Assembly (NCBI GenBank): GCA_977017645.1
Contig: OZ360229.1
Span: 102,920,001-102,984,000, forward strand
Direction: 5' to 3'
From: Torpedo marmorata
Lineage: Eukaryota
DNA: 64,000 nt
The first letter of the stretch is position 1, and each line of letters opens with the position of its first letter. The notes below the pieces were generated by a model. The model made no database searches and was not told the DNA's origin. It saw only the letters and a program-made list of their open reading frames with translations. Of this stretch, positions 11,461-43,709 are shown one piece after another. The position numbers and the translations under genes are program-made.

Positions 11461-12318
11461 CCTTACACCTATGACTGTGTAGCTCGGTACGACAATAACA
11501 CCATCTCCAAATTTACCGACGATACCATGGTAGTAGGTTGTATAAAGGAAGGGGATGAGTCAGCATACAGGATGGAGATTGAAAACCTGGCTGAATGGTG
11601 CACCAACAACAACCTTGCACTCAATGTCACCAAAACTAAGGAGCTGATTGTTGACTTCAGGAAAGGAAAGCCAGAGGTATACAATCCAGTGATCATTGGG
11701 GGATCAGGGGTGGAGAGGGTGAGCAAATTTAGGTTCTTAGGAGTCACTATCTCGGATGACTTTTCCTGGACCCAACACACCAATGGCATTGTGAACAAAG
11801 CACGTCAGTGCCTCTACTTCCTTAGGAGTTTGCGAAGGTTTGTTATGACTTCAGAAACCCTGGAAAATTTCTACCGATGTGTGGTGGAAAGTGTGCTGAC
11901 CGGCTGCATCACGGTCTGGTATGGAAACACCAATACCCCTGAGTGTAAAGCCCTTCAAAAGGTAGTGGACACAGCCCAGGACATCACAGACAAAACCCTC
12001 CCCACTATTGAGTACATCTACAGGGAACGCTGCCGTCGGAGGGCAGCACCAATCATCAAAGACCCACACCACCCAGTACACACTCTGTTCTCGCTGCTGC
12101 CATCAGGAAAGGGGTATAGGTGCCACAAGACTCGCACCACCAGGTTTAGGAACAGCTAGTACCCCTCTACCATCAGAATCCTCAATGACAAAGTCAATCA
12201 GAGACTCATTTAAGGACTTTTACTTGTGCACTTTATTGATTTTCTTTGCTCTCCCTGTATTGCACAGTCAGTTTGTTTACATTCATTATCTGTTTACAGT
12301 TCTTTTGATTGTTTACAT

Positions 12319-12984
12319 TGTTATGGACCATGACTGACCATTTGGACTGCGGACGGTCAGCAGGAAGGATGAAGTCTTTTGGAGTACACACTGGGACCAG
12401 GCACTGAAAGGCTGTGCTCAGAGAGAGAGACAGAGAGAGAGAGAGACAGGCTGTGGAAAGATACTTTGTTGCACTTTTGCAAAAGCAGGTGCAAACCTCT
12501 GCAAAAAGCATTCAGATTCAGTTTGGAGTTGCAAGAGGCTGGAAGAACACAGCCAAAATCCAGGCTTGTGCATCCCAGGGGAAGAGGCTGGTAGAATAGC
12601 ACATGGCCTCCTGTATCAGCAAAATCCTGAGTTAAAACAACTTTCGTGAAGAACAGGCGTGAGATCAGCGAGACAGGCTGTGAGATCCAAGTATACACCT
12701 CAATCAAAACTGATTTGGAGTCGCAATCCTCGTGTATCTACCATCAGAGAAGAAAAGCAGGCCAAGCATTCGTAAGCATAAACAGTCATTGTCTCTCTCT
12801 CTCCAACGTTCATTAAGAAGTCCTTCGTGCCAGCACACAGAGCTGAATTTGGACCCTGAACATAGAGAGTGATTTTTGTGGACTGTATTTTTGGGACTGA
12901 CTTATTTTTATGACTGACCTGGGGGTTTTGGGAAAGTTTTCCATTTTTACATGAGGGTTGGGCACAGACTGTAATGGTCTGGGC

Positions 12985-13042
<58 letters not shown>

Positions 13043-13186
13043 TTAGATAAGAATAGTGTTTATAGATGTTTATAGTGGGGTTAATTGTTAAGAAATTATA
13101 TGTTTAATTGTCTTTAATAAATATAAATTTCAATTTTACCCCTTTTGCATTGCGTCTTCTGTCGTTGCTGGTTTGAATTTGTAACA
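12319..13186 (+). mobile_element. Solo LTR (Gypsy-type, 4-bp TSD)
   Basis: TGTTA...TAACA termini; TSD ACAT at 12315-12318 and 13187-13190; AATAAA; homologous to 31018-31910. Confidence 0.9.
12988..13039. repeat. (CA)n microsatellite inside the solo LTR
   Basis: About 26 CA units; the homologous position in the 31018 copy is much shorter. Confidence 0.95.
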
Positions 13187-23997: not shown

Positions 23998-26658
23998 ATG
24001 GCGGATAGTAAATCAATAAATGTTGTAAGTATTAATATAAATGGGCTGAATAATCCGATTAAACGGAAGAAAACTTTGGCATATATTAAAAAGTTACAAG
24101 TTGATATAGCTTTTTTACAAGAGACACATTTGACAGATGTAGAACATCAGAAACTGAAAAGAGAATGGGTTGGTCAAGTGGTTGCATCTTCATTTAATTC
24201 TACAGCAAAAGGAGTTGCTATATTAATTAATAAAACGTTTTTACCTTTTAAAATACCGTCTGTGGTTTCAGATGTGTCAGGAAGATATGTTTTAATAAAT
24301 TGTCAGATATATTCAGAAATGTGGACACTTATGCATATATATGTGCCAAATACGGAAGATGAACAATTTATTCAAGATTCTTTTATGCATTTATCAGAAG
24401 CAAATGATAATATTTTAATCAGTGGGGATTTTAATTGTTGTTTCGATCCAATAATAGATAAAACATCGAAATGAATTATTAGAACTAAAACTGCGAAAAT
24501 AATTCTTTCTTTGATGAAAGATCTGAATTTAATAGATATTTGGAGGAAGTTAAATCCAAGAGAAAAAGACTATTCTTTTTATTCTTTTAGACATGATTCT
24601 TATTCTAGAATAGATATGTTTTTATTGTCATCTCAATTCAAAGACAGAGTGACTCAAGTACAATATAAAGCAAGAATAATTTCTGATCATTCACCTCTAA
24701 TAATGTCATGTATAATTCCAGAAAAAGAAAAAAATTATATATAGATGGAGATTAAATTCTTCTTTCTTAAAAAGACTGGATTTTTGTAATTATATAAGAA
24801 AAGAAATTCATGAATTTTACAGATTAATTCTAATTCGATTGACAATAAATTTATTATTTGGGAGGCTCTAAAGGCTTATTTAAGAGGTCAAATAATAAGT
24901 TATTCAGCAAAATTTAAAAAGGAATATATTCAGGAATTAGATAATTTGGAGAAGGAGATCGAGTTTCTGGAAAAGGATTTACAAAAGAAGAGATCAGAAG
25001 AAAAGAGGAGGAATTTAATTGATAAAAAATTGTATAATAATACGGGGAGATATCTAGTTATAAGATTAATTCTGATAAAAGAGAAATTATGGCATTGACA
25101 CAAGGGGATTATAGTAAATGTAAAGAAATTACACAATTTAAATGGGCAAAAGAAGGAATTAAATATTTGGAATAAAGACTGATACAAAATTAGTTAATTT
25201 ATATAAATTAAATTATATACCATTATTTATGAAAATTAAAAAAGATTTAAAAAGTTGGAAGGATTTACCTATAACTTTAATAGGAAGGGTAAATTGTATT
25301 AAAATGAATGTCTTTCCAAGAATTCAATATCTTTTTCAACCAATTCCTTATGAAATTCCTCAGAAATATTTTAAAGATTTAAATTTAACTATAAGGAAGT
25401 TTTTGTGGAAAGAAAAGTTGGCTAGAGTAGGTATGCAGAAATTAACTTGGAATTATGAAATGGGTGGTTTACAACTTCCCAATTTTCAAAATTATTATAA
25501 AGCAGCTCAATTAAAATTTATTAATGAAATGTTTGATTCAGGAAAATCTTCTGATTGGATTAAAATAGAATTAAATAATATGGGAGAAGATTTGAAAGAA
25601 GAAGTTATTTATAAATGGAATTCTAAATTAGTATTAACAAGAGGGAAAAATTCTCCCATTTTTAGACATTTGTTAGAAATATGGAATGGAGTGGATAGGG
25701 AGATAGGAGGGAAAGGGTTAATTTCTCGAAGAATGCCTTTATATCAAAATAAACTTATTCCATTTACTGTTGATAATCAATTATTTAAAATTTGGTTTCA
25801 AAAGGGAATTAAGAAAATAAATGATTGTTTTGAAGCTAGTAAATTTATTACTTTTCAAAGAATGAAAGAAAAGTTTAATGTTTTAGATAATACACTTTTT
25901 GCTTATTATCAAATTAGAGCATTTTTAGTTGAAAGGTTGGGTTATAGTTTGACTTTACCAAGACAAAGTGAACTGGAATTATTAGTTATTAATGGAGGTA
26001 TAAATAAATTTATTTCTCAAATGTATAGATTATTACAGATAAAAATGCCCAAAGTAGGAATTCACAAATCAAGATTAAAATGGGAATCAGATTTGAATGT
26101 AACAATAGATGAAGAACATTGGAAAGAATTATGTAAATTAAGTATGACAAAAATTATTAATGTCAGATATAGACTAGTGCAATATAATTTTTTCCACCAA
26201 TTATATTTAACACCTAAAAAATTAAAGAAATTTAATCCGACATTATCTGGTTTATGTTTTAGATGTAATAGAGAGGAAGATTCTTTTCTACATTCTACAT
26301 GGCTTTGTCCAAAGATATATGATTTTTGTTTGAAAGTTAAAAAGTTTTTAGATAAAGTATTAAGAATTACACTCCCAATGGATCCTATGATATTTTTATT
26401 TGGAGATATTAAAAGAATTAGTACCAAGATGAAATTAAATATGTACCAAATAGAATTTTTGCGAATTGCTTTAGCTGGTTCTAAGAAATATATTGCTATT
26501 ACATGGAAATCTCATGTAGATTTAGGGTTAGATAGATGGCATGCAGAACTTCGTTCAGCTATACCACTTGAAAAAATTACTTATAATTTACGTAATAAAT
26601 ATCATTCTTTTTGAAAATATGGAGCCCATATATAAAAACGGTTGGTTTAAGGATTTGA
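23998..26658 (+). pseudogene. L1 ORF2p remnant: APE endonuclease and C-terminal region, RT core missing
   Basis: NINGLNNPIKRKK, FLQETH, GDFN, YSRIDMF, ISDH; near 25040 the sequence jumps to YGEISSYKIN..KYLG; then LIGRVNCIKMN and the CFRC..HSTWLC knuckle. Confidence 0.88.
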
Positions 26659-28211
26659 AGATCTCTGGATATGAGATCTGACTGGTGAACCTATTCTCCA
26701 CAATAAAATTAGTTTATAGTTGTTCTTTTTTTAGATTGACATTCTCCTTATTTTATCTTTTTCTTTCTTTCTTTTCTATTTTACTAGATTAGTAGGGGTG
26801 GGAGGGTTAGGGAGGGGAGGGAGGGTGGGGGGGAGAAAATGTATCACATGTATTTTGATAATTTTGCATTTTATACAGTGTATTGTGTGATTTAAAAATT
26901 TTAAATAAAATATTTAAAAAAAAAGAAAACAAATAGATAAAAAATACGAGTTTAAAATTAAAAGGGCGGCACGGTTTGCGTAGCGGTTAACGTAACGCCT
27001 TTACAGCGGCAGTGATCGGGACCGGGGTTCGAATCCCATGCTGTCTGTAAGGAGTTTGTACGTTCTCCCCGTGTCTGCATGGGTTTTCCCTGGGGGTTCC
27101 AGTTTCCTCCCACCTTTCGAAACGTACCATGGGTGTAAGAGCCGTAAGCTTAATTACTTACCTTGGTCGCGGCGCTCCGATGTCTCGGCGGGTTACGGAG
27201 GAGTCGAGGTGTTTGTAGGCCGTGCTAGGCCTATTTAGTACTCTGCGCATGCGCTAGAGTGCCGACGGGCGCGTGTGCAGTTGGGAATTGACGGCAGTGT
27301 GCGTGGTGGAGTATGCGCGGTTGAGTATGCGCGGTGGAATATGCGCATTGAGCATGCGCGAATCGGGAAAAGGAATAGGAAAAGATGGGGACGGAGGAGG
27401 GTGAGTGATATCGCCATATCTTTTATTGAACGTTTCATTGAACATTTAAACATCATTTCCTTGAACATTTAAACTCGTTTCATTGATAGTTTAAAGTCTT
27501 TAAAGTCATTTAATTGAACATCTAAATACAGTCAAAGGAATCGTTTAAAGGAATTTATTAAACATCGTTATCAAGAACTGTTTATATTTCGTTTAAAGAA
27601 GATATTTAAGTCATTCAAGATTGCTGCAAGTCACGTGTGTAAATAAAGTTTTTTGAACATATCGGACTTTGTTAGTAAATTAATTGAAACGCGTCAAGAA
27701 CAATTGTCTCACCTAGCCTCCAAGTGACTATTTGTTGGATTGAAGTCACGATATAATTAGTCAATAAAAGTGGTTGTTTGGAACAGAAAATTGAAGGAAA
27801 GAAGATAGAATAATCTATCTGTGCTTTCGACTGATATTTAAAATAAAATGGTGGCCATCTTGGAGATGCCTCGAGTTGGGGGCAGTTTGTAATCCACATC
27901 CATCTGCCATGAGTAACAGCCAGAGAGGGATTTAAAGCTTCAAATCTTATAGTAAAGTGTCCTTTAAATACGTTGGAGAAACCATTTTTGGAAAATCAGC
28001 GATATTATTGATGGATGTTGTGGTTGAAACTCGTTTGTGAATAGCAGCACATTACAGTCATCTGAAGTGGTAGGCATAAGTCTGTGGACTCCTTCTGTGT
28101 ATCTTTGGCAAGTTAGAACACAGATTGGATTTGCTGCCGCTGGTCCATTGGGGACTGTTGATTTGGCTAGTGTTGTGTATGCTTGAAAGACAGTGGAACA
28201 AGACGAGTAAA

Positions 28212-31017
28212 ATGGCCGCAGCAGCCTCTGATGCAGCAGCCACTGATGTATCAGCAGCTGACGCAGCAACCGCTGATGTTGCTGTTGAGGACCAACGTAT
28301 TGAAGACATGAAGATTGTGGATATTAAAAAAGAATTGAAGTGACTGAAACAAGATATAAGTGGAAATAAAAAGGTTCTCATCGCAAGATTGAAGCTGGCA
28401 AAGGAAAAAGAGGCGGCTTCGTTAGATGAACAAGAAGATAACAAGGAAATGGCTGAAATTGTGTCACCAAATGAAGAGGATGAAGAAAATTAAGAAAATT
28501 AAGAGGATGAAGAAAATGAAGAGGATGAAGATGCAAAGGATGTACATGTCGAATTGGAGAAAGAGGTAAGTATGAAGACAACATATGACCAGCAGGATGA
28601 AATACAAGCAAGTGACAGTGTCTCAAATACTGAAAGCAGGAGAAGCAAACAAAGTTCTGGTTCGAGCTCCAGAGTTTCTCGTACTTCAAGTTCTGCATCT
28701 TCACGTACAATGATTGATGTTAAATTGGCCGCTCTTCTTGCACAACAAAATTCTCTTAAGGATAAACATGTTTTAGAAGAACAGGAGGAGGAACTAAGAG
28801 AACAGGAAAAACAGCTAAGGCAGAGGCAGAGACAACAGGAGGAACAGCTAAGGCAGAGGAAGAGACAACAAGAGGAACAGCTGAGGCAGAGAGTACAGGA
28901 GGAGCAGCTAAGACAGAGCCAACAGCTAAGGAAGAGACAAGAGCAGCTAAGAAAGAAAAAAGAGCAGCATGAGCTAAAAACAGATATTGCTATTGCCAAA
29001 GCCAGAAAGAAAGCAATAGAAGGCTCAATAGTATCTGGTGCTAAAAGTAAATTATCCAAAGTGTCTGATAATAAAAGGTCATATTTAAAAAAAGAGTCAC
29101 AGGAAAAGAAACCAACCAAAAGAGTAGACATTTTAGAAACAGGGGTACAAGACTTTCAAATACAAGGACAAATCCTTCAAGAGCATATTGGTATCGAGTC
29201 ACATGTACCAGTGGTAACATCTGAAGACAAAGCTGCGGCTTGGGTTCGGTCGAACTATGCAGCTTCCTTGTTATTTGAGTCAAGCATCAAAAATATGGAA
29301 GAAACTACACCAGTGAAGTTTCCAGATACATTAACTGCAACAAGAGCAATGTATTGTCATCCAAAGGAAGACAAAATGAAATTGGTGCATCATTGATTCA
29401 GTTACAGTCTCTCTCTTCTTTACCCAAGAAAGAGATACAAACTTTTCACGGTGATCCACTTCAGTACCAATCATTTATGAGATCTTTCAAACGCAATATT
29501 GAAAATAAATGCCAAGATCGTGATGAATGTCTTTATTATTTGGAAATGTTCACAAAGGGACATCCAAAAGAAATTGTAAAGAGTTGTCAACATATGTTCT
29601 CAGAAAGAGAATTAGACAGAGCTAAGGCTTTACTAGAACAACATTTTGGCAACAAGCATCGAATTGCTTTAGCTTATATGGATAAAGCTCTTAAATGGAC
29701 ATCAATAAAACAAAATGATGTAAAGGCTCTACAAGAATATACTTTATTTTTAAGAGGATGCTGTAATGCCATGGAAGATATCGATAATATTCGTGAGCTT
29801 GAAGTGCCTGGTAATATGCGAATCATCTTAGAAGTTGTGGGATAGATGGAGAAATTTGGCTTGTGATATACAAGAAAATTACGGTGGAAGAGCTAATTTA
29901 AAGGACTTGGTAAAATTTCTTGAACGACAGGTGTACATTGAAACAGATCCAATATATGGAAATACCAGAGACAATTCAATGGGCAAAGATGTGAGGAGGT
30001 CTAACTCACAGCCTAGTCCGAAATTGAAAAGGAGTACTTTTACTACTAATGTGTCAGTTATAAATAAAGAAATGGACAAAGTAAATAAGGAAAAGGAAAG
30101 TTTGCCTGATGAAAAGAATTGTTGGTTCTGTAAAGGTGGACATGTTTAGAAATGTGTTTACAATTGGTAAAGAAGGAACATAATGAGAAGATCGCTTTCT
30201 TAAAGGAAAATGGAATATGTTTTAGCTGTTTGTGTAAAGGGCACATCAGTAAAAACTGTGAGAAGCGAATTAATTGTAACATATGTAAGTTGAAACATCC
30301 TAGAATTTTGCATATCCATCAAAGAAACAAGGAATTGGAAAAGGAGCAAACAGAAACAAAGGAAACATCTGAAAACAATGTTATAACCTCGGTTCAGACA
30401 AATGGTCTTACCGGGGCCGGTGTGGATAACTGCAAACTTGCAATAGTGACTGTACAAGTCAAGACCAAGAATGGGGATGCAACAGTACATACATATGCAT
30501 TTCTAGACCCAGGCAGCACTGCATCTTTTTGCATGGAAGGACTAATGAACAAACTTAATATTTAAGGAAGAAGGTCAAGAATTATGTTGAAAACCATGGG
30601 ACAAGAAAAGAGGTCGTTGAAACTAGCATTGTTTCAGGTTTAGAGGTTGCTGGATTGGATGACAAAAAATTGTGATCTTCCAATGTTATATACTCAGAAG
30701 ACTATGCCTGTGCATGAAGGAAACATTCCTCATCAAAATGATATCCATAACTTATCTTATCTGTGGAAGGTTTATTTACCTGAAATTAACTCTGAGATAG
30801 AAATGCTGATTGGTTCAGATGTGCCAAAGTTTTTGGAACCACTAGAAGTAATACAGAGTAGAAGGAGTGGACCTTACTCTATTAGAACCAAGCTTGGTTG
30901 GACAATCAATGGACCATTGGAAAGAAATAATGATATTGCTCAGGAACACTTAGCGATAAATATTAACAGGATTTCGGTTGTGAAAGTTGATGAGTTAAGG
31001 GAAGAGCAAAAGACTGT
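28212..31017 (+). pseudogene. BEL Gag-protease polyprotein with stops and frameshifts
   Basis: LPKKEIQTFHGDPLQY (DUF1759-like); CWFCKGGH, CFSCLCKGHISKNC, CNICKLKHPRILH; protease YAFLDPGSTASF; MLIGSDVP..TKLGWTINGP. Confidence 0.87.
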
Positions 31018-31910
31018 TGTTATGGACCATGACTGACCATTTGGACTGCGGACGGTCAGCAGGAAGGATGAAGTCTTTTGGAGTATACACTGGGGCCAGT
31101 TACTGAAAGAGTTAACTTCCCCAGGACTTGGTGTACCCAGACAAGATACATTGTTGCACTTTTGGTGTACCCAGAAAAAGAGAGACCAGAGAGAGAGAGA
31201 CAGACTGTGGACAAGATACATTTGTTGCACTTTTGCAAAAGCAGGTGCAGATCTCTGCAGAAAAAGCAGACAGTTGTAAGTTGCAGAGGCTAGAGAACAC
31301 AGCCAAATCCAGGTTTGTGCAGCCAGAGAAAAACCTGGCAGAATAGCACATGGCCTCCTGTCTCAGAGAAATTCTGAGGAAAAGCAACTTCTGTGGAGAA
31401 CAGGCGTGAGATCAGCGAGACTAGCTGTGAGATTCAAGCACACGCCTAAATCAGTGGTATACTGATCTGAACTCGCAATCCTTATGAACACACAAGAAGG
31501 GGACGTCATCAGAGAAGAAAACAAGTATTTGTAAGCATAAACATTGTCTCTCTCCAACGTTCATTCAGAAGTACTTCTACCAGACACAGAGCTGAATTTG
31601 AAGCCTGAACTTAGAGAGTGGATTTTGTGGACTGTATTATTCTTTTTTTTTACTGACTTGTTTTTTATGACTGACCTGGGGTTTTTGGGGAAAGTTTTTC
31701 CATTTTTACATAAGGGTTGGGCACAGACTGTAATGGTCTGGGCTTTACACACACACACATACACCTTTTAGATAAGAATAGTGTTTATAGACGTTTTTGT
31801 GGGGTTAATTGTTGTGAAATTATATGTTTAATTGTGTTTAATAAATATAAATTTCAATTTTACCCCTTTTGCATTGCGTCTTCTGTCGTTGCTGGTTTGA
31901 ATTTGTAACA
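31018..31910 (+). mobile_element. Solo LTR (same family as 12319) inserted in the BEL ORF
   Basis: TGTTA...TAACA termini; TSD CTGT at 31014-31017 and 31911-31914. Confidence 0.9.
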
Positions 31911-32060
31911 CTGTGAATAAGAAAATCACTTTTGAAGAAAAGAAAATAGATCAATGTGAAAATAAATCAAAGGTATTTAAACAACATTGAAGGAATTATG
32001 TTCATCAGAAATGGATGAAAATGAAGTATTAGAAGATGTTGCAAATAATACTATTGATTA

Positions 32061-33325
32061 TTTGACCAATCTGATTGAATTTTTTGAAGAGGTGACTAGG
32101 ACTGTGGATGAGGGTAGTGCAGTGGATGTTGTCTATATGGACTTCAGTAAGGCCTTTGATAAGGTTCCGCATGGAAGGTTAGTGAGGAAGGTGCAGTCTT
32201 TAGGTATAGATTCTGAGATAGTCAAATGGATTGAACATTGGCTGGAGGGGAGAGGCCAGAGAGTGGTAGTGGATAATTGTTTGTCAGGTTGGAAGCCCGT
32301 GACAAGCGGTGTGCCTCAGGGATCTGTATTGGGCCCATTGTTGTTTGTTATATATATCAATGATCTAGATGATGGGGTGGTAAACTGGATTAGTAAATAT
32401 GCAGATGATACCAAGATAGGTGGAATAGTGGATAATGAAGAAGGTTTTCAAGGATTGCAGAAGGATTTGGGCTGCTTAGAAAAGTGGGCTGAAAAATGGC
32501 AGATGGAGTTTAATGCTGATAAGTGTGAGGTGCTTCATTTTGGAAAGAAGAATCAGAACAGGACATATGTAGTAAATGGGAGAGCATTGATGAATACAGA
32601 AGAGCAGAAAGATTTAGGAATAACGGTGCATCGTTCCCTGAAGGTGGAAACTCATGTGAATAGGGTGGTGAAGAAGGCTTTTAGTATGCTGGCCTTCATC
32701 AATCAATGCATAGAATATAGGAGTTGGGAAGTGATGTTGAGATTATATAAGGCTTTGGTGCGGCCTAATTTAGAGTTCTGTGTGCAGTTCTGGTCGCCAA
32801 ATTATAGGAAGGATATCAACAAAGTGGAGAGAGTGCAGAGAAGGTTTACCAGAATGTTACCTGGGTTTAAGAATTTAGAGTACAAGGAGAGATTGAGCAG
32901 ATTAGGTCTTTATTCTTTGGAGCGTAGAAGGTTGAGAGGGGATTTGATAGAGGTATTTAAAATTATGAAAGGGATAGACAGAGTGGATGTGGATAGACTA
33001 TTTCCATTAAGAATAGGAGAGATTGAAACAAGAGGACATGAGCTAAGAGTTAAGGGGCAGAGGTTTAGAGGTAACATGAGGGGGAACTTCTTTACTCAGA
33101 GAGTGGTAGCAGTGTGGAATGAGCTTCCGGGAGAAGTAGTGGCGGCAGAGTCAATTTTAGTATTTAAGAAAAAGTTGGACAAGTATATGGATGAGAGGGA
33201 AGTGGAGGGTTATGGGCAAGGTGCAGGTAGGTGGGACTAGATAGGAATGTTTTGGTTCGGTGCGGACTGGAAGGGCCTAATGGCCTGTTTCCGTGCTGTA
33301 ATTGTTATATGGTTATATGGTTATA
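32061..33325 (+). mobile_element. CR1 LINE, 5'-truncated, RT C-terminal half still open, inserted in the BEL element
   Basis: LTNLIEFFEEVT..YMDFSKAFDKVPH..SGVPQGSVLGP..YADDTK; (GTTATATG)n tail. Confidence 0.93.
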
Positions 33326-33574
33326 TGTGTAATTGAATCAGATACAGAAATAAAACAAGTGACTGAAAACAAACCTGAATGTCGATTTTGTAGTTCAGAG
33401 GTTACAACTGACAAAGTCAATGAAGAAATGTTGCAATGTGATGTAAAACTGGAGAACACAGAAAATTGTGCTGATGGAATAAAGAATAATTTGAATGATA
33501 ATTTAATGCAATTGAATTCAGGGAACAAAATGTTGAAAGGGGAATTGGAAATATTAGATAATCATGAAAACAGT

Positions 33575-34050
33575 AAACAGAAAGATTTAATTGTAAGTAA
33601 AATTCGCAAAGTCAGAAAGCGGAAGAAAAGAATAACTGCTGAAGAAATGTATACAGTTATTGAGTAAAGAGATTCAGCATTATCAAAATGTAAAAGGTTG
33701 GAGGAAGAGATTAATATTTTGAAAGAGAACAAGTTATTGGTTAATAACACAAAACAGTTAACTATAGAAAACAATCAATAATGTAAATTGAATGTTCAGC
33801 TATTAACAATGCAGAAAGAAAGTGATATTGCATTGCAGAAATGTAACAAGCAAGATGAAGAAATTAAAAAATTTCAAGTTTACCACAGCAGGATTGACAA
33901 TAGAAGTACCAATGTATCAATGATATTTTCACTTCAGATCAAGTTATTAATTTCTCGGAAGGAACTGAGACAGAATTGAATGTTGAAAAATTGGATTTGG
34001 AATTGCAGGAAAAGGCAATAGAAACCAGAGTGGTTAAAGAAACTCATTTA
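33575..34050 (+). pseudogene. MIPOL1-like coiled-coil host gene fragment inside the BEL element
   Basis: Read through two TAA stops: IVSKIRKVRKRKKRITAEEMYTVIE*RDSALSKCKRLEEEINILKENKLLVNNTKQLTIENNQ*CKLNVQLLTMQKESDIALQKCNKQDEEIKKFQVYHS; resembles recalled vertebrate MIPOL1 (RITAEEM..RDAALSKCKRLE..LTAENNQ..LLSMQ..EEI..VYYS). Confidence 0.72.
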
Positions 34051-34275
34051 TTAAAATCGAGAGAATCAGATAAATATTCAAATTCTAATTCTAAGAGTTT
34101 AAATTCTTCACATGAGAAGTGGAATGCTGAAAAAAGAAATAAAGTGAAACGACATGCTGAAGAAGTGCCTCGTGTTAAATTCAAAAGAAAAACTGTATCT
34201 ATTTTGTCTGAGGAAGATTTGAGGTTTACTGGTCGACGTTTTAACTCAAAGATTCTGGAGATAAAAGAACTTTGA

Positions 34276-34458
34276 AGAGACATTGTGATTATACTGGATG
34301 ATTCAGCTCCTCGAAACTCCTGGTTACTTGGAAAAATTGTTGAGACTATTCAGGACAAAAGGGGACTTGTGCAACAGGTGCGAATTAAAACTAAGACTGG
34401 CTTTCTAAATAGATCTATTAACAAGGTCTGCCTTCTGTTGGAGATGGAGGAACTTTGA
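34276..34458 (+). pseudogene. BEL integrase C-terminal tail (DUF5641-like)
   Basis: RDIVIILDDSAPRNSWLLGKIVETIQDKRGLVQQVRIKTKTGFLNRSINKVCLLLE, in the same frame as ORF 33976-34275. Confidence 0.85.
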
Positions 34459-36077
34459 TAAATACAAACTGACTTTATTTGTTGTTGTATACTTCACAGG
34501 CACAGACTTTTGTAGATTCACAGTTATGGTAAACTCTGATCTCATGAAGAAAGAAGATTTGTATATTGTTTGAATGTTATATGGTTATTGTCATTCATAA
34601 TTGATTGTGTAATTATTATTTAAGACATTGTGTCTAATTATAATAATTAGGGGCCGGTATAAGAGCCCTAAGCTTAATTACTTACCTTGGTCGCGGCGTT
34701 CCGATGTCTCGGCAGGTTACGGAGGAGTCGCGGTGTTTGTAGGCCGTGCTAGGCCTATTTAGTACTCTGCGCAAGCGCTAGATTGCCGACGGGCGCATGC
34801 GCAGTTGGGAATTGACGGCAGTGTGCGCGGTGGAGTGTGCGCGGTTGAGTATGCGCGGTGGAATATGCGCATTGAGCATGCGCAAATCGGGAAAAGGATT
34901 AGGAAAAGATGGCGACGGAGGAGGGTGAGTGTTATTGCCATATCTTTTATTGAACGTTTCATTGAACATTTAAACATAGTTTCATTGAACGTTTAAACTC
35001 GTTTCATTGATGGTTTAAAGTCTTTAAAGTCATTTAATTGAACATCTAAATATGGTCAAAGGAATTGTTTAAAGGAATTTATTAAACATCGTTATCAAGA
35101 ACTGTTTATATTTCGTTTAAAGAAAATATTTTTAGTCATTGAAGATTGCTGCAAGTCACGTGTGTAAATAAAGTTTTTTGAACATATCGGACTTTGTTAG
35201 TAAATTAATTGAAACACGTCAAGAACAAGTGTCTCCAAGTGACTATTTGTTGGATTGAAGTCACTATAAGGCATGTAGGTTAATGGGTTGTAAATTGGGT
35301 GGCAAGGACTTGTGGGCCGAAAGGCCTGTTACCGGGCTGTATGTTTAAATTTTTTAAATTGGCGCCCCTAGTGGTCAGTTCACCAATCCACACAACACGC
35401 AGTCTTAAGCAACTGGGAAAATTCATTTATCCGGCATCTATCAATCCACATAGGTGCCGGATACCCGGGGATTTGCAGTATAAATGTCATATATGATATA
35501 TAAAATATCATGTGCTTTATAAAGTTGGATTCAGTTGTAAATTTGATTGTCATCCAGTCTCATGGAGATACTTTGTGGACTGTTACCTTCTAGGTGATTT
35601 CACTGAATTGAATAGTTTCAGGGGTTTCTGTAAATTATTCTCTGATTCATGAGGATTTATCTACAAGGGCAGAGGCATTTTCTTGGTTATGCATTAACTT
35701 CACTACACAGGAAATGACAGAGGAGACAAACAGTGAACCCCCTTGGCTGTTTTACTCCCACTTCACATGTCAATGCTGCTCCGGATAAAACCATCATCTT
35801 TAGATGTGACTTTTGAAAAATTCCATTACCTGTTCCTGGTTTCCACAACTCTGAATGAAAATTTCTTCCTTTTATCATTTCTAATGGCAGACGTTATAAA
35901 GACCCTTTATCAGAACCAGGAAAGTCAGAATACAGGTATTGTTTTCTCACTTTTCTCATTTGTTCGCTCAGAAGGACTGCTTACGAGTCTGTTATACCTT
36001 TGGGCGTAATACAGTATGGATCATGTTGCTAAAACGGAGTACTTTGTTCAGATCATCTTTGCATTATTCTATAATAA

Positions 36078-42628: not shown

Positions 42629-43709
42629 CCGTATATTTCGGCGTATAAGTCGAGTCTTGAAACCCTCAAAAATCTCTCAAAAAACTGGGATCGACTTATA
42701 CGCCGGATATACTTTTGAGACCTTAAAATCAGCTCAAAAACCAATCCACGCCGATTCGGCGTATAAGTCGACCCATGAAAAACCGTTTCGGCATATAGGT
42801 CGACCCTGGAAGCACCTACCCACCGCCGGCACCGCCGCTCCCCGACACCTTCCCACCGCCGGGCGCCGCCATAAACCACCCAGACATTCTACAATTGTAG
42901 AGCCCGAGGTCCCCGCTCCTACCCGGGAGAACGAGCTCCCTGCTCCTGCTCGGAAGAAACATGTCCCCGCTCCTGCTCAGGAGAACGAGCTCCCTGCTCC
43001 TGCTCGGGAGAACGAGCTCCCCGCTCCTGCTCGGTAGAACGAGCTCCCCGCTCCTGCTTGGGAGAAAGACGTCCCCGCTCCTGCTCAGGAGAACGAGCTC
43101 CCTGCTCCTACTCGGGAGAAAGACGTCCCCGCTCCTGCTTGGGAGAACGAGCTCCCTGCTCCTGCTCGGAAGAAACATGTCCCCGCTCCTGCTCAGGAGA
43201 ACGAGCTCCCTGCTCCTGCTCGGGAGAACGAGCTCCCCGCTCCTGCTCGGGAGAACGAGCTCCCCGCTCCTGCTCGGGAGAAAGACGTCCCCGCTCCTGC
43301 TCGGGAGAACGAGCTCCCCGCTCCTGCTCGGGAGAAAGACGTCCCCACTCCTGCTCGGGAGAACGCGCTCCCCGCTCTTGCTCCGGAGAAAGAAGTCGCC
43401 GCACCTGCATCTTCCCGGCCAGAAGCAGAGGTTTTTTTTACTGTTTTTTTTACTTACCGGCACTTGCTTAATTTACAGTTTTGTTACTTGGCGATTGGGA
43501 TGTTGTAACAAATTTTGGGTTGTTGCTGGGAGGCCCAGACAGCCTGAAAATTGGGGGTCGACTTATATGCCGGTCAATGCGCAACATCTCAGGCATCGTG
43601 ATTTTTGGGGGTCGACTTATACGCCGGATATACCATAAAACCATTAAAATGAGTCTGAAAAAGGGGGGTCGACTTATCCGCGAGTCGACTTATACGCCGA
43701 AATATACGG
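42629..43709. mobile_element. Non-autonomous Tc1/mariner-superfamily (pogo/Tc2-like) DNA transposon
   Basis: TIR CCGTATATTTCGGCGTATAAGTCGA at both ends; TA target duplication; subterminal GTCGACTTATACGCCG repeats. Confidence 0.9.
42905..43390. repeat. 27-bp minisatellite inside the DNA transposon
   Basis: About 18 units of GAGAACGAGCTCCCCGCTCCTGCTCGG with variants. Confidence 0.92.

Follow-up and report, generated by a model that had tools for sequence, protein, structure and literature searches.

A non-autonomous BEL/Pao retrotransposon of Torpedo marmorata with spliced host exons in place of its reverse transcriptase, RNase H and integrase core

Background

Host transcripts captured by retrotransposons with long terminal repeats (LTRs), or associated with them, have been described in several settings. 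In animals, Tan et al. (2016, PMC5131818) documented LTR-mediated retrocopies, among them one flanked by the mosquito element BEL18_AG and a mouse chimera assembled from four genes. The maize element Bs1 holds three host gene fragments in one LTR element and occurs in one to five copies (PMC5131818, PMC13317346). A further case is the set of mouse pseudogenes derived from circRFWD2 (Dong et al. 2016, PMC4897178), of which 33 high-confidence copies were reported near LTR sequence, with the mechanism left open. A 2026 preprint (10.64898/2026.06.26.734816) puts MIPOL1 at the head of the parent genes of retrocopies in cartilaginous fishes and connects the number of retrocopies with non-LTR elements. 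Each of these sources is cited for the parts of it that were examined; in those parts, the preprint does not name the element described below.

The present study concerns 64,000 nucleotides of Torpedo marmorata DNA (the window), positions 102,920,001-102,984,000 of the contig coded G000:C41 in a host assembly of 6.22 Gb. Near the middle of the window lies a retrotransposon of the BEL/Pao group (Belpaoviridae). The original prediction, made from the letters of the window, was that a spliced MIPOL1-like host messenger RNA had been transduced into a BEL family in place of its enzymatic core. We report that the element is a non-autonomous BEL/Pao retrotransposon in which spliced host exons, here called the cargo, stand in place of the reverse transcriptase, ribonuclease H (RNase H) and integrase core. 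Much of the prediction held: the captured RNA was spliced, the family is non-autonomous, the capture is family-wide and in frame with Gag-protease, and MIPOL1 is a donor. It needs revision: there are three donors, and the MIPOL1 template was likely a circular RNA.

Results and discussion

An element without an enzymatic core

All features of the element lie on the forward (+) strand. It extends from a 5' LTR (27134..27753) to a 3' LTR (34658..35268), the latter preceded by a purine-rich tract, and the two repeats are 93.4% identical over 623 columns. Between them lie a gag and protease region decayed by stops and frameshifts (28167..31013) and a remnant of the integrase C-terminal tail (34276..34458). 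The former matches the gag family DUF1759 (E value 3e-6) and aligns with residues 1-1033 of an autonomous relative in the same genome, L152, at 68-85% amino acid identity; the latter matches DUF5641 (E value 1.7e-10) and is 88% identical in amino acids to L152 residues 2076-2126. The presence of both families places the element in BEL/Pao. L152 has an intact frame of 2134 residues with matches to SAP, reverse transcriptase, Peptidase_A17, integrase and DUF5641, that is, the single Gag-Pol frame (protease, reverse transcriptase, RNase H, integrase) of an autonomous BEL/Pao element, which the window element lacks. Since the two match only at residues 1-1033 and 2076-2126, the reverse transcriptase, RNase H and integrase core are absent from the window element: L152 residues ~1170-1944, which hold them, have no counterpart there in the frame comparison, in agreement with what had been predicted for the interval between protease and integrase tail.

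The element splits a short interspersed nuclear element (SINE) into halves at 26963-27133 and 35269-35360. A clean target-site duplication is not readable at the ends of this copy, while 5-bp duplications are readable in the cargo-bearing copies L161, L163, L164, L165 and L169.

Two further sequences interrupt the window copy, namely a solo LTR of a different family (31018..31909, with the 4-bp duplication CTGT) and a 5'-truncated CR1 long interspersed nuclear element (LINE; 32063..33324; RVT_1, E value 9e-25). Of 2,025 candidates from a DNA search that used the insert as query, 40 matches were scored; all of these are 94-100% identical over nearly the full query, and the 29 best copies of the candidates (L002-L030) form the window-type comparison set. 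In all 29 the protease region abuts the insert directly, and solo LTR and CR1 are missing at those sites; both are private to the window copy. The expectation that the capture is a property of the family is thereby confirmed, and a single-copy processed pseudogene is ruled out by the sister copies. It had also been argued that removal of the solo LTR restores an open frame; naturally uninterrupted copies are indeed open over the protease-cargo join in 22 of 29 cases. The solo LTR type has further copies at window positions 12318-13186 and at L026:2679-3544, where it sits inside another copy of the cargo family at a different insertion site.

Three host genes as donors

By itself, the window piece matched no Pfam family, MIPOL1 included, in the Pfam copy used. 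For the insert of copy L004, all 17 protein matches carry both MIPOL1 Pfam domains (best E value 5e-19), and the insert is 53% identical to alligator MIPOL1 over 102 residues, which bears out the likeness first recognized by eye. Generic coiled-coil similarity is ruled out by E values of 5e-19 to 2e-86. Two TAA stops in the window had been placed at glutamate positions of MIPOL1, and the sister copies read glutamate there.

A search of 1.84 billion representative proteins returned 38 matches, including P0023, which is 54% identical to the first 142 residues. Because this 1943-residue protein has an N-terminal RING domain and C-terminal BRCT domains, and because of its length, we identify it as a probable BRCA1; a first impression of P0023 as a BEL polyprotein was ruled out by its Pfam RING and BRCT matches. 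The captured BRCA1 piece derives from a low-complexity region outside both kinds of domain.

The third donor was recognized from longer copies. A genome search with a MIPOL1 protein gave 116 matches from 73 scored of 42,756 candidates, and the 20 best copies of these candidates (L031-L050) form the long-type comparison set. Their frame runs on into an Elongin_A domain (E value 1e-15; 715 homologues). Among named proteins, this cargo piece is closest to Elongin A from the electric ray Narcine bancroftii, a protein that the host exons match at 84-100%. Eight long copies were compared at the 9-13 residues that distinguish host from Narcine Elongin A: they agree with the host at 4-11 of them and with Narcine at 0-2; the capture therefore came after the split between host and Narcine.

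The longest copy, L043, comprises four BRCA1, six MIPOL1 and five Elongin A exon pieces at 90-98% identity to the host exons (the sixth MIPOL1 piece, shorter than 20 bases, was identified by eye). Eleven introns have been removed at canonical sites, leaving 11 forward splice junctions over the three donors, so that the match crosses MIPOL1 exon junctions in the way a spliced template requires. Partial, intron-free host RNA without poly(A) has replaced the internal open reading frame of L043, as in an LTR-mediated retrocopy.

Compared with L043 the window copy is trimmed, and its identity to the host exons is 77-94%. Its BRCA1 cargo consists of an exon piece spliced onto the start of the large exon (31910..32062; 82-94% to host exons at G000:C61:25.49 Mb) and, beyond the CR1, more of the large exon (33326..33590; 80%). 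MIPOL1 follows as block A (33583..33888; downstream exons e, f and g, spliced; 84-89% to host exons on G000:C40) and block B (33889..34032; upstream exons a and b, shortened by an in-frame 81-nt deletion; 77-86%). Elongin A contributes two exon pieces (34032..34253; 79-92% to host exons at G000:C41:38.99-39.01 Mb) without the BC box of the longer copies. Of the proposal that the whole insert is MIPOL1-like, positions 33583-34032 stand; exon mapping assigns the coiled-coil-like stretch before 33583 to BRCA1 and that after 34032 to Elongin A. The BRCA1-MIPOL1 join has ~2 shared bases and the MIPOL1-Elongin A join a short linker.

Annotated chimeric proteins of other species were absent from the 120 best of 168 matches, a weak negative given coverage of at most 54% and lengths of 204-650 only, and from the 38 representative matches, which is likewise weak. 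Cargo-family copies are also inserted in the introns of the donor MIPOL1 (G000:C40:64.28-64.76 Mb, five junction markers in 400 kb), and the family is also present 40 kb from Elongin A, at G000:C41:39.08 Mb.

MIPOL1 exons in back-spliced order

A second MIPOL1 block, out of order, had been suspected downstream of the first. It reaches E values down to 1e-13 in longer copies, and window positions 33889-34032 correspond to two host exons located upstream. The last base of block A is the donor end of exon g. It is followed directly, at 33888..33889, by the first base of exon a, whose acceptor lies 206,169 bases upstream in the gene; in the host a pyrimidine tract and AG come before this base, and stops occur upstream in every frame. 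In 49 of 49 copies the junction is exact, without a base gained or lost. Exons a to g total 780 nt, of which long copies hold ~590 nt in circular order, and the MIPOL1 matches of seven long copies all fall within these exons, with no parental sequence beyond them. An exact back-splice of this kind points to a circular RNA, and not a messenger RNA, as the likely template for MIPOL1, with reverse transcription proceeding around the circle. The implied 780-nt circle is a multiple of three, and the back-splice preserves the native frame.

For this step of the history, a template jump on linear messenger RNA, trans-splicing or a genomic tandem duplication could be invoked instead. Reverse transcriptase has jumped several times in the element and AG is common at exon ends, and trans-splicing between two pre-messenger RNAs is compatible with the DNA evidence. 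A jump would have had to hit exact splice sites on both sides, whereas the other gene-gene joins are mid-exon, and to do so with just two shared bases, as the exon normally preceding exon a and exon g itself have only their terminal AG in common. Among position pairs of the host coding exons that share 3 bases, 7 of 27,063 are exon-end pairs, and the chance of such a jump is ~3 in 10,000. A linear template is also at odds with the confinement of all captured MIPOL1 sequence to the a-to-g circle. Against tandem duplication, none of exons a, b, c and g was present a second time with flanking intron in the 600 kb examined, and the uncaptured part of exon c has one match in the genome. We consider this group of explanations very improbable.

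One open frame and a shared stop

In the family, the cargo follows Gag-protease in the order BRCA1, MIPOL1, Elongin A, each in its native frame. The frame is open from the end of the protease through the entire cargo in 9 of 29 copies, so that a continuous reading frame across genomic copies, as had been anticipated, does occur, and three host-gene fragments share one open frame as in Bs1. A stop (34273..34275 in the window) closes it just before the integrase tail in 27 of 29 copies (23 TGA, 4 TAA; 2 not matched). The second MIPOL1 block had been described as in frame with the integrase tail. The tail does share the frame of the cargo, but it lies behind this common stop, which rules out a fusion of the cargo product with the integrase tail; the Gag-protease-MIPOL1-integrase tail protein once envisaged must be abandoned. 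Template switch points are shared across copies, which show further rounds of retroposition.

Two cargo types and a change of backbone

Long copies differ from the host by a synonymous divergence (dS) of 0.08, and the two types differ from each other by a dS of 0.54 in Gag-protease and 0.24 in the cargo. Compared with six autonomous copies, the gag-protease region of the window element shows mostly 83-86% identity with five and 68% with the sixth; its identity with long copies is 73-74%. In a protease tree of 45 rows, from which loci with fewer than 400 aligned bases were excluded, 11 window-type rows cluster with 7 autonomous rows (100/99) and 15 long-type rows stand separately (95/86); the autonomous elements of the first group carry Peptidase_A17, in keeping with BEL/Pao membership. 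The dS contrast, the identities and the tree together indicate that the cargo likely moved onto a new backbone by recombination.

The MIPOL1-Elongin A join of L044 (2134-2144) and other long copies contains 11 bases that match the LTR start. They are absent from the window type, and in both full copies checked this 11-mer occurs solely at the two LTR starts and at the join. LTR-end bases in this position suggest that Elongin A arrived in a separate step, by nested insertion followed by deletion.

The two LTRs of a copy are 86-94% identical where cargo is present and 94-100% identical in autonomous copies. The autonomous copy L152:691-9086 has 100% identical LTRs and an intact 2134-residue frame with an N-terminal SAP domain, and several further frames reach at least 2,000 residues; by these two signs the helper lineage is very recent. 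Among 150 scored matches, window-type copies had no frame longer than 891 residues. Before the 5-bp duplication, the LTR ends in TA in autonomous and window-type copies (L152, L153, L154, L156, L164, L169) and in the usual CA in long-type copies (L161, L163).

Abundance and transcripts

Abundance was estimated with a 120-base marker over the junction in 1.2 Mb of sampled sequence, a sample that is not strictly random and has 800 kb at three loci. The marker occurred 5 times in 400 kb (40 chosen stretches at round-number positions); the 600 kb of host loci held 6 and another 200 kb held one. Twelve markers in 1.2 Mb extrapolate to ~62,000 copies (32,000-109,000), and a protein search, with 33,445 first-look candidates, is of the same order. 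If most copies are near the full 6 kb, the family would make up several per cent of the genome. All 11 markers that were compared with both types are nearer the window type; a BC-box marker was found 0 times in the 1.2 Mb and an RNase H marker once, a ratio of cargo-bearing to RNase H-bearing copies of 12 to 1.

In two runs of unrecorded kind, X2 and X3, the exons of host Elongin A are covered and joined over a GT..AG intron, and unique stretches of intron have no coverage. Contigs of these runs also extend over every one of the 30 bins of a window-type copy. Intronic repeats are covered as well, so that transcription from the element's own LTR is not demonstrated. Words of the insert occur in nineteen runs under 11 organism codes, 14 of them at small shares, which gives no basis for a species range.

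Selection on the frame and on the residues

Ratios of nonsynonymous to synonymous change (dN/dS) were computed pairwise among natural sequences (29 window-type copies, 18 long-type copies and host exons), with the intermediates L034 and L039 excluded. The net dN/dS between window type and long type is 0.22 (0.15-0.35) over 253 codons of Gag-protease and 0.79 (interval 0.48-1.33) over 317 codons of cargo; within the window type the values are 0.56 (0.42-0.74) and 0.87 (0.63-1.34), respectively. Gag-protease is under purifying selection. The residues of the cargo are not clearly constrained, and the anticipated dN/dS below 1 for the insert was not established, as its interval extends past 1.

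The frame of the cargo, by comparison, was kept open. The shared cargo indels are -24, -120, -3, -81, -195, -3 and -111, seven in-frame changes, followed by -8/+1 in the last eight codons. Shared indels are in frame in 7 of 9 cases versus 7 of 29 for private small indels, with P ~0.008 for 7 of 9 at one third. With ~113 codons changed, 4.9 shared stops would be expected in the cargo and 0 are seen; the sole shared stop counted stems from alignment into the unrelated tail and is not cargo. The reference for the indel comparison, L043, has private frameshifts of its own, and the comparison was repeated against four other references. Changes from host to window-type cargo (L002-L030) include C>T 48, G>A 44 and C>A 28 versus T>C 4, and the C content of the MIPOL1 part has dropped from 15.6% to 10.2%.

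Proposed history and competing explanations

We think it probable that a non-autonomous BEL/Pao family captured spliced BRCA1, back-spliced MIPOL1 and Elongin A by template switching and has carried them as an open-frame passenger, not for a protein function. Host RNAs would have been co-packaged in particles, where reverse transcriptase jumped between templates and copied some three quarters of one turn of a 780-nt MIPOL1 circle. Elongin A would have been gained separately by the nested insertion and deletion proposed above. The cargo would later have recombined onto the backbone of a newer helper lineage, shrinking from ~2.0 kb to 1.1 kb. The element would supply its own Gag-protease and take reverse transcriptase and integrase from the helper. 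Long 3' tails expose RNA to nonsense-mediated decay, and the frame was likely kept open since an early stop would leave such an untranslated tail on the RNA needed for Gag and packaging.

Several points weigh against this history. Deletion of the cargo would also shorten the RNA, so a passenger leaves the 1.1 kb retained in the dominant type unexplained. The cargo dN/dS interval allows moderate constraint (lower bound 0.48), and the BRCA1 part gives 0.53 (0.30-1.06) from host to family. The copies compared are top similarity matches, so that divergence is biased downward and long-type copies whose MIPOL1 residues are intact are favoured. At the gene-gene joins the stretches of microsimilarity are short (~2 bases at BRCA1-MIPOL1). 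The host circle is deduced from DNA. A literature search on the decay of RNAs with long tails turned up nothing specific among the papers listed. No precursor with one or two donors was seen, and the order of capture rests on a single 11-base match.

The chimeric protein might instead serve the element, either by recruiting Elongin B/C through the BC box and cullin box of Elongin A attached to Gag-protease, or by using its BRCA1 and MIPOL1 pieces as decoys or as a coiled-coil scaffold. Some viral proteins, such as Vif of human immunodeficiency virus, recruit Elongin B/C. All three host entries are in their native frame, the cargo outlived the change of backbone, and the point estimates of its dN/dS lie below 1; long copies keep the start of the Elongin_A domain, and L047 and L048 delete sequence before that domain with the frame still kept. 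Yet the dominant type lacks the BC box (none of the 12 copies sampled from 1.2 Mb has it), ~45% of the cargo was deleted on the way to that type, the BRCA1 piece is low-complexity sequence outside RING and BRCT, and the cargo dN/dS is indistinguishable from the within-family value of 0.87. A functional chimeric protein is conceivable, most of all for the long type, which has the BC box; as an account of the family we find it doubtful. A bolder version, on which we place scarcely more weight and which we likewise regard as unlikely, would have a new protein, built from BRCA1, a circle of MIPOL1 RNA and the part of Elongin A that binds Elongin B/C at its end, and fused to Gag, disarm host control and so enable spread to several per cent of a 6-Gb genome, with copies sending small RNAs or decoys back against BRCA1 and Elongin A and with circular RNAs as regular cargo of LTR particles in cartilaginous fishes.

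Camouflage at the RNA level, in which small RNAs directed at the element would strike BRCA1, MIPOL1 and Elongin A as well, making silencing costly to the host and letting the family escape, would fit the 12-to-1 excess of cargo-bearing over RNase H-bearing copies, and two of the donors are central nuclear genes. Identity of the dominant type to the host exons has fallen to 77-94%, the opposite of what camouflage would require, and the open frame is left unexplained; the idea, put forward for plant elements with captured genes in the examined part of PMC13317346, seems to us quite improbable here. A shade more improbable is pure hitch-hiking, with cargo and frame both unselected and the open frame due to luck or to deletions between codon-spaced repeats. 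The cargo dN/dS is compatible with 1, one shared frameshift lies near the end, and deletions between similar codons can favour multiples of three; what counts against it is the excess of in-frame changes among shared over private indels (7/9 versus 7/29), the shared stops (0 versus 4.9 expected) and the native frame of all three host entries.

Other features of the window

A second copy of the same BEL family, cut by the window edge, lies on the minus strand at 38-1955 and comprises a 5' LTR and part of gag (84-94% identical in pieces). A tandem array with a 27-nt period occupies 42798-43472. An open stretch of 483 codons at 25163-26614 resembles the C-terminal part of a LINE ORF2.

Significance and comparison with known systems

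Literature searches (MIPOL1 with retrotransposon, circMIPOL1 and related terms) found no description of the cargo element; Repbase and Dfam lay outside their scope. The claim that nothing of the kind had been described holds for the element itself and not for the general mechanism, which is in print (PMC5131818 and PMC4897178, in the parts examined). Capture mechanisms were already known from maize Bs1 and mouse circRFWD2; the scale and the combination were not found in print. The element shows multi-gene exon shuffling by a vertebrate LTR element at tens of thousands of copies, and its dated stages (long type, trimmed type, change of backbone) allow selection for an open frame to be separated from selection for a protein. 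Retrocopy counts can mirror one LTR family and not selective retention, and read counts and annotations of BRCA1, MIPOL1 and Elongin A in this genome are confounded. A plain explanation is offered for the first rank of MIPOL1 among cartilaginous-fish retrocopy parents in the preprint, provided that its count draws on this genome.

The cargo family resembles autonomous BEL/Pao elements of the same genome, such as L152, in its related LTRs, gag, protease and integrase tail (83-86% DNA identity) and in its 5-bp target duplications; unlike it, they keep reverse transcriptase, Pao peptidase/RNase H and integrase in a single frame of 2,050-2,130 residues between LTRs that are 94-100% identical. With acutely transforming gag-onc retroviruses it has in common a defective genome, host exons fused to gag and dependence on a helper. 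It differs from them in germ-line spread instead of infection, in its three donors and in giving no evidence of a selected captured protein; no envelope family is present among the seven Pfam matches of the L152 helper frame. The analogy with oncogene capture, as first drawn, is therefore apt for the mechanism of capture and not for a selected protein function, as the cargo shows no clear constraint.

As in the LTR-mediated retrocopies of Tan et al. (PMC5131818), partial spliced messenger RNAs from several parents replace internal reading frames between two LTRs and are retroposed repeatedly. The retrocopies in the examined part of that work are individual loci, whereas here there are an estimated 62,000 copies, cargo in frame with a Gag-protease under purifying selection, and one back-spliced donor. 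Maize Bs1 (PMC5131818, PMC13317346) shares the three host fragments, the chimeric frame and switch points common to all copies; in contrast to Bs1 as described in the examined parts, the present element is a vertebrate BEL/Pao whose copy number is thousands of times higher; it contains a circular-RNA junction and lacks a demonstrated protein function. The circRFWD2 pseudogenes (PMC4897178, examined in part) likewise have a non-colinear junction at a back-splice site, no poly(A), an association with LTRs and multiple copies. Here, unlike there, the junction is embedded in a full LTR element, with the protease on one side and the integrase tail on the other, in frame and together with two other genes, and would thus be a direct record of the route by which a circular RNA returns to DNA, which Dong et al. 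had left open.

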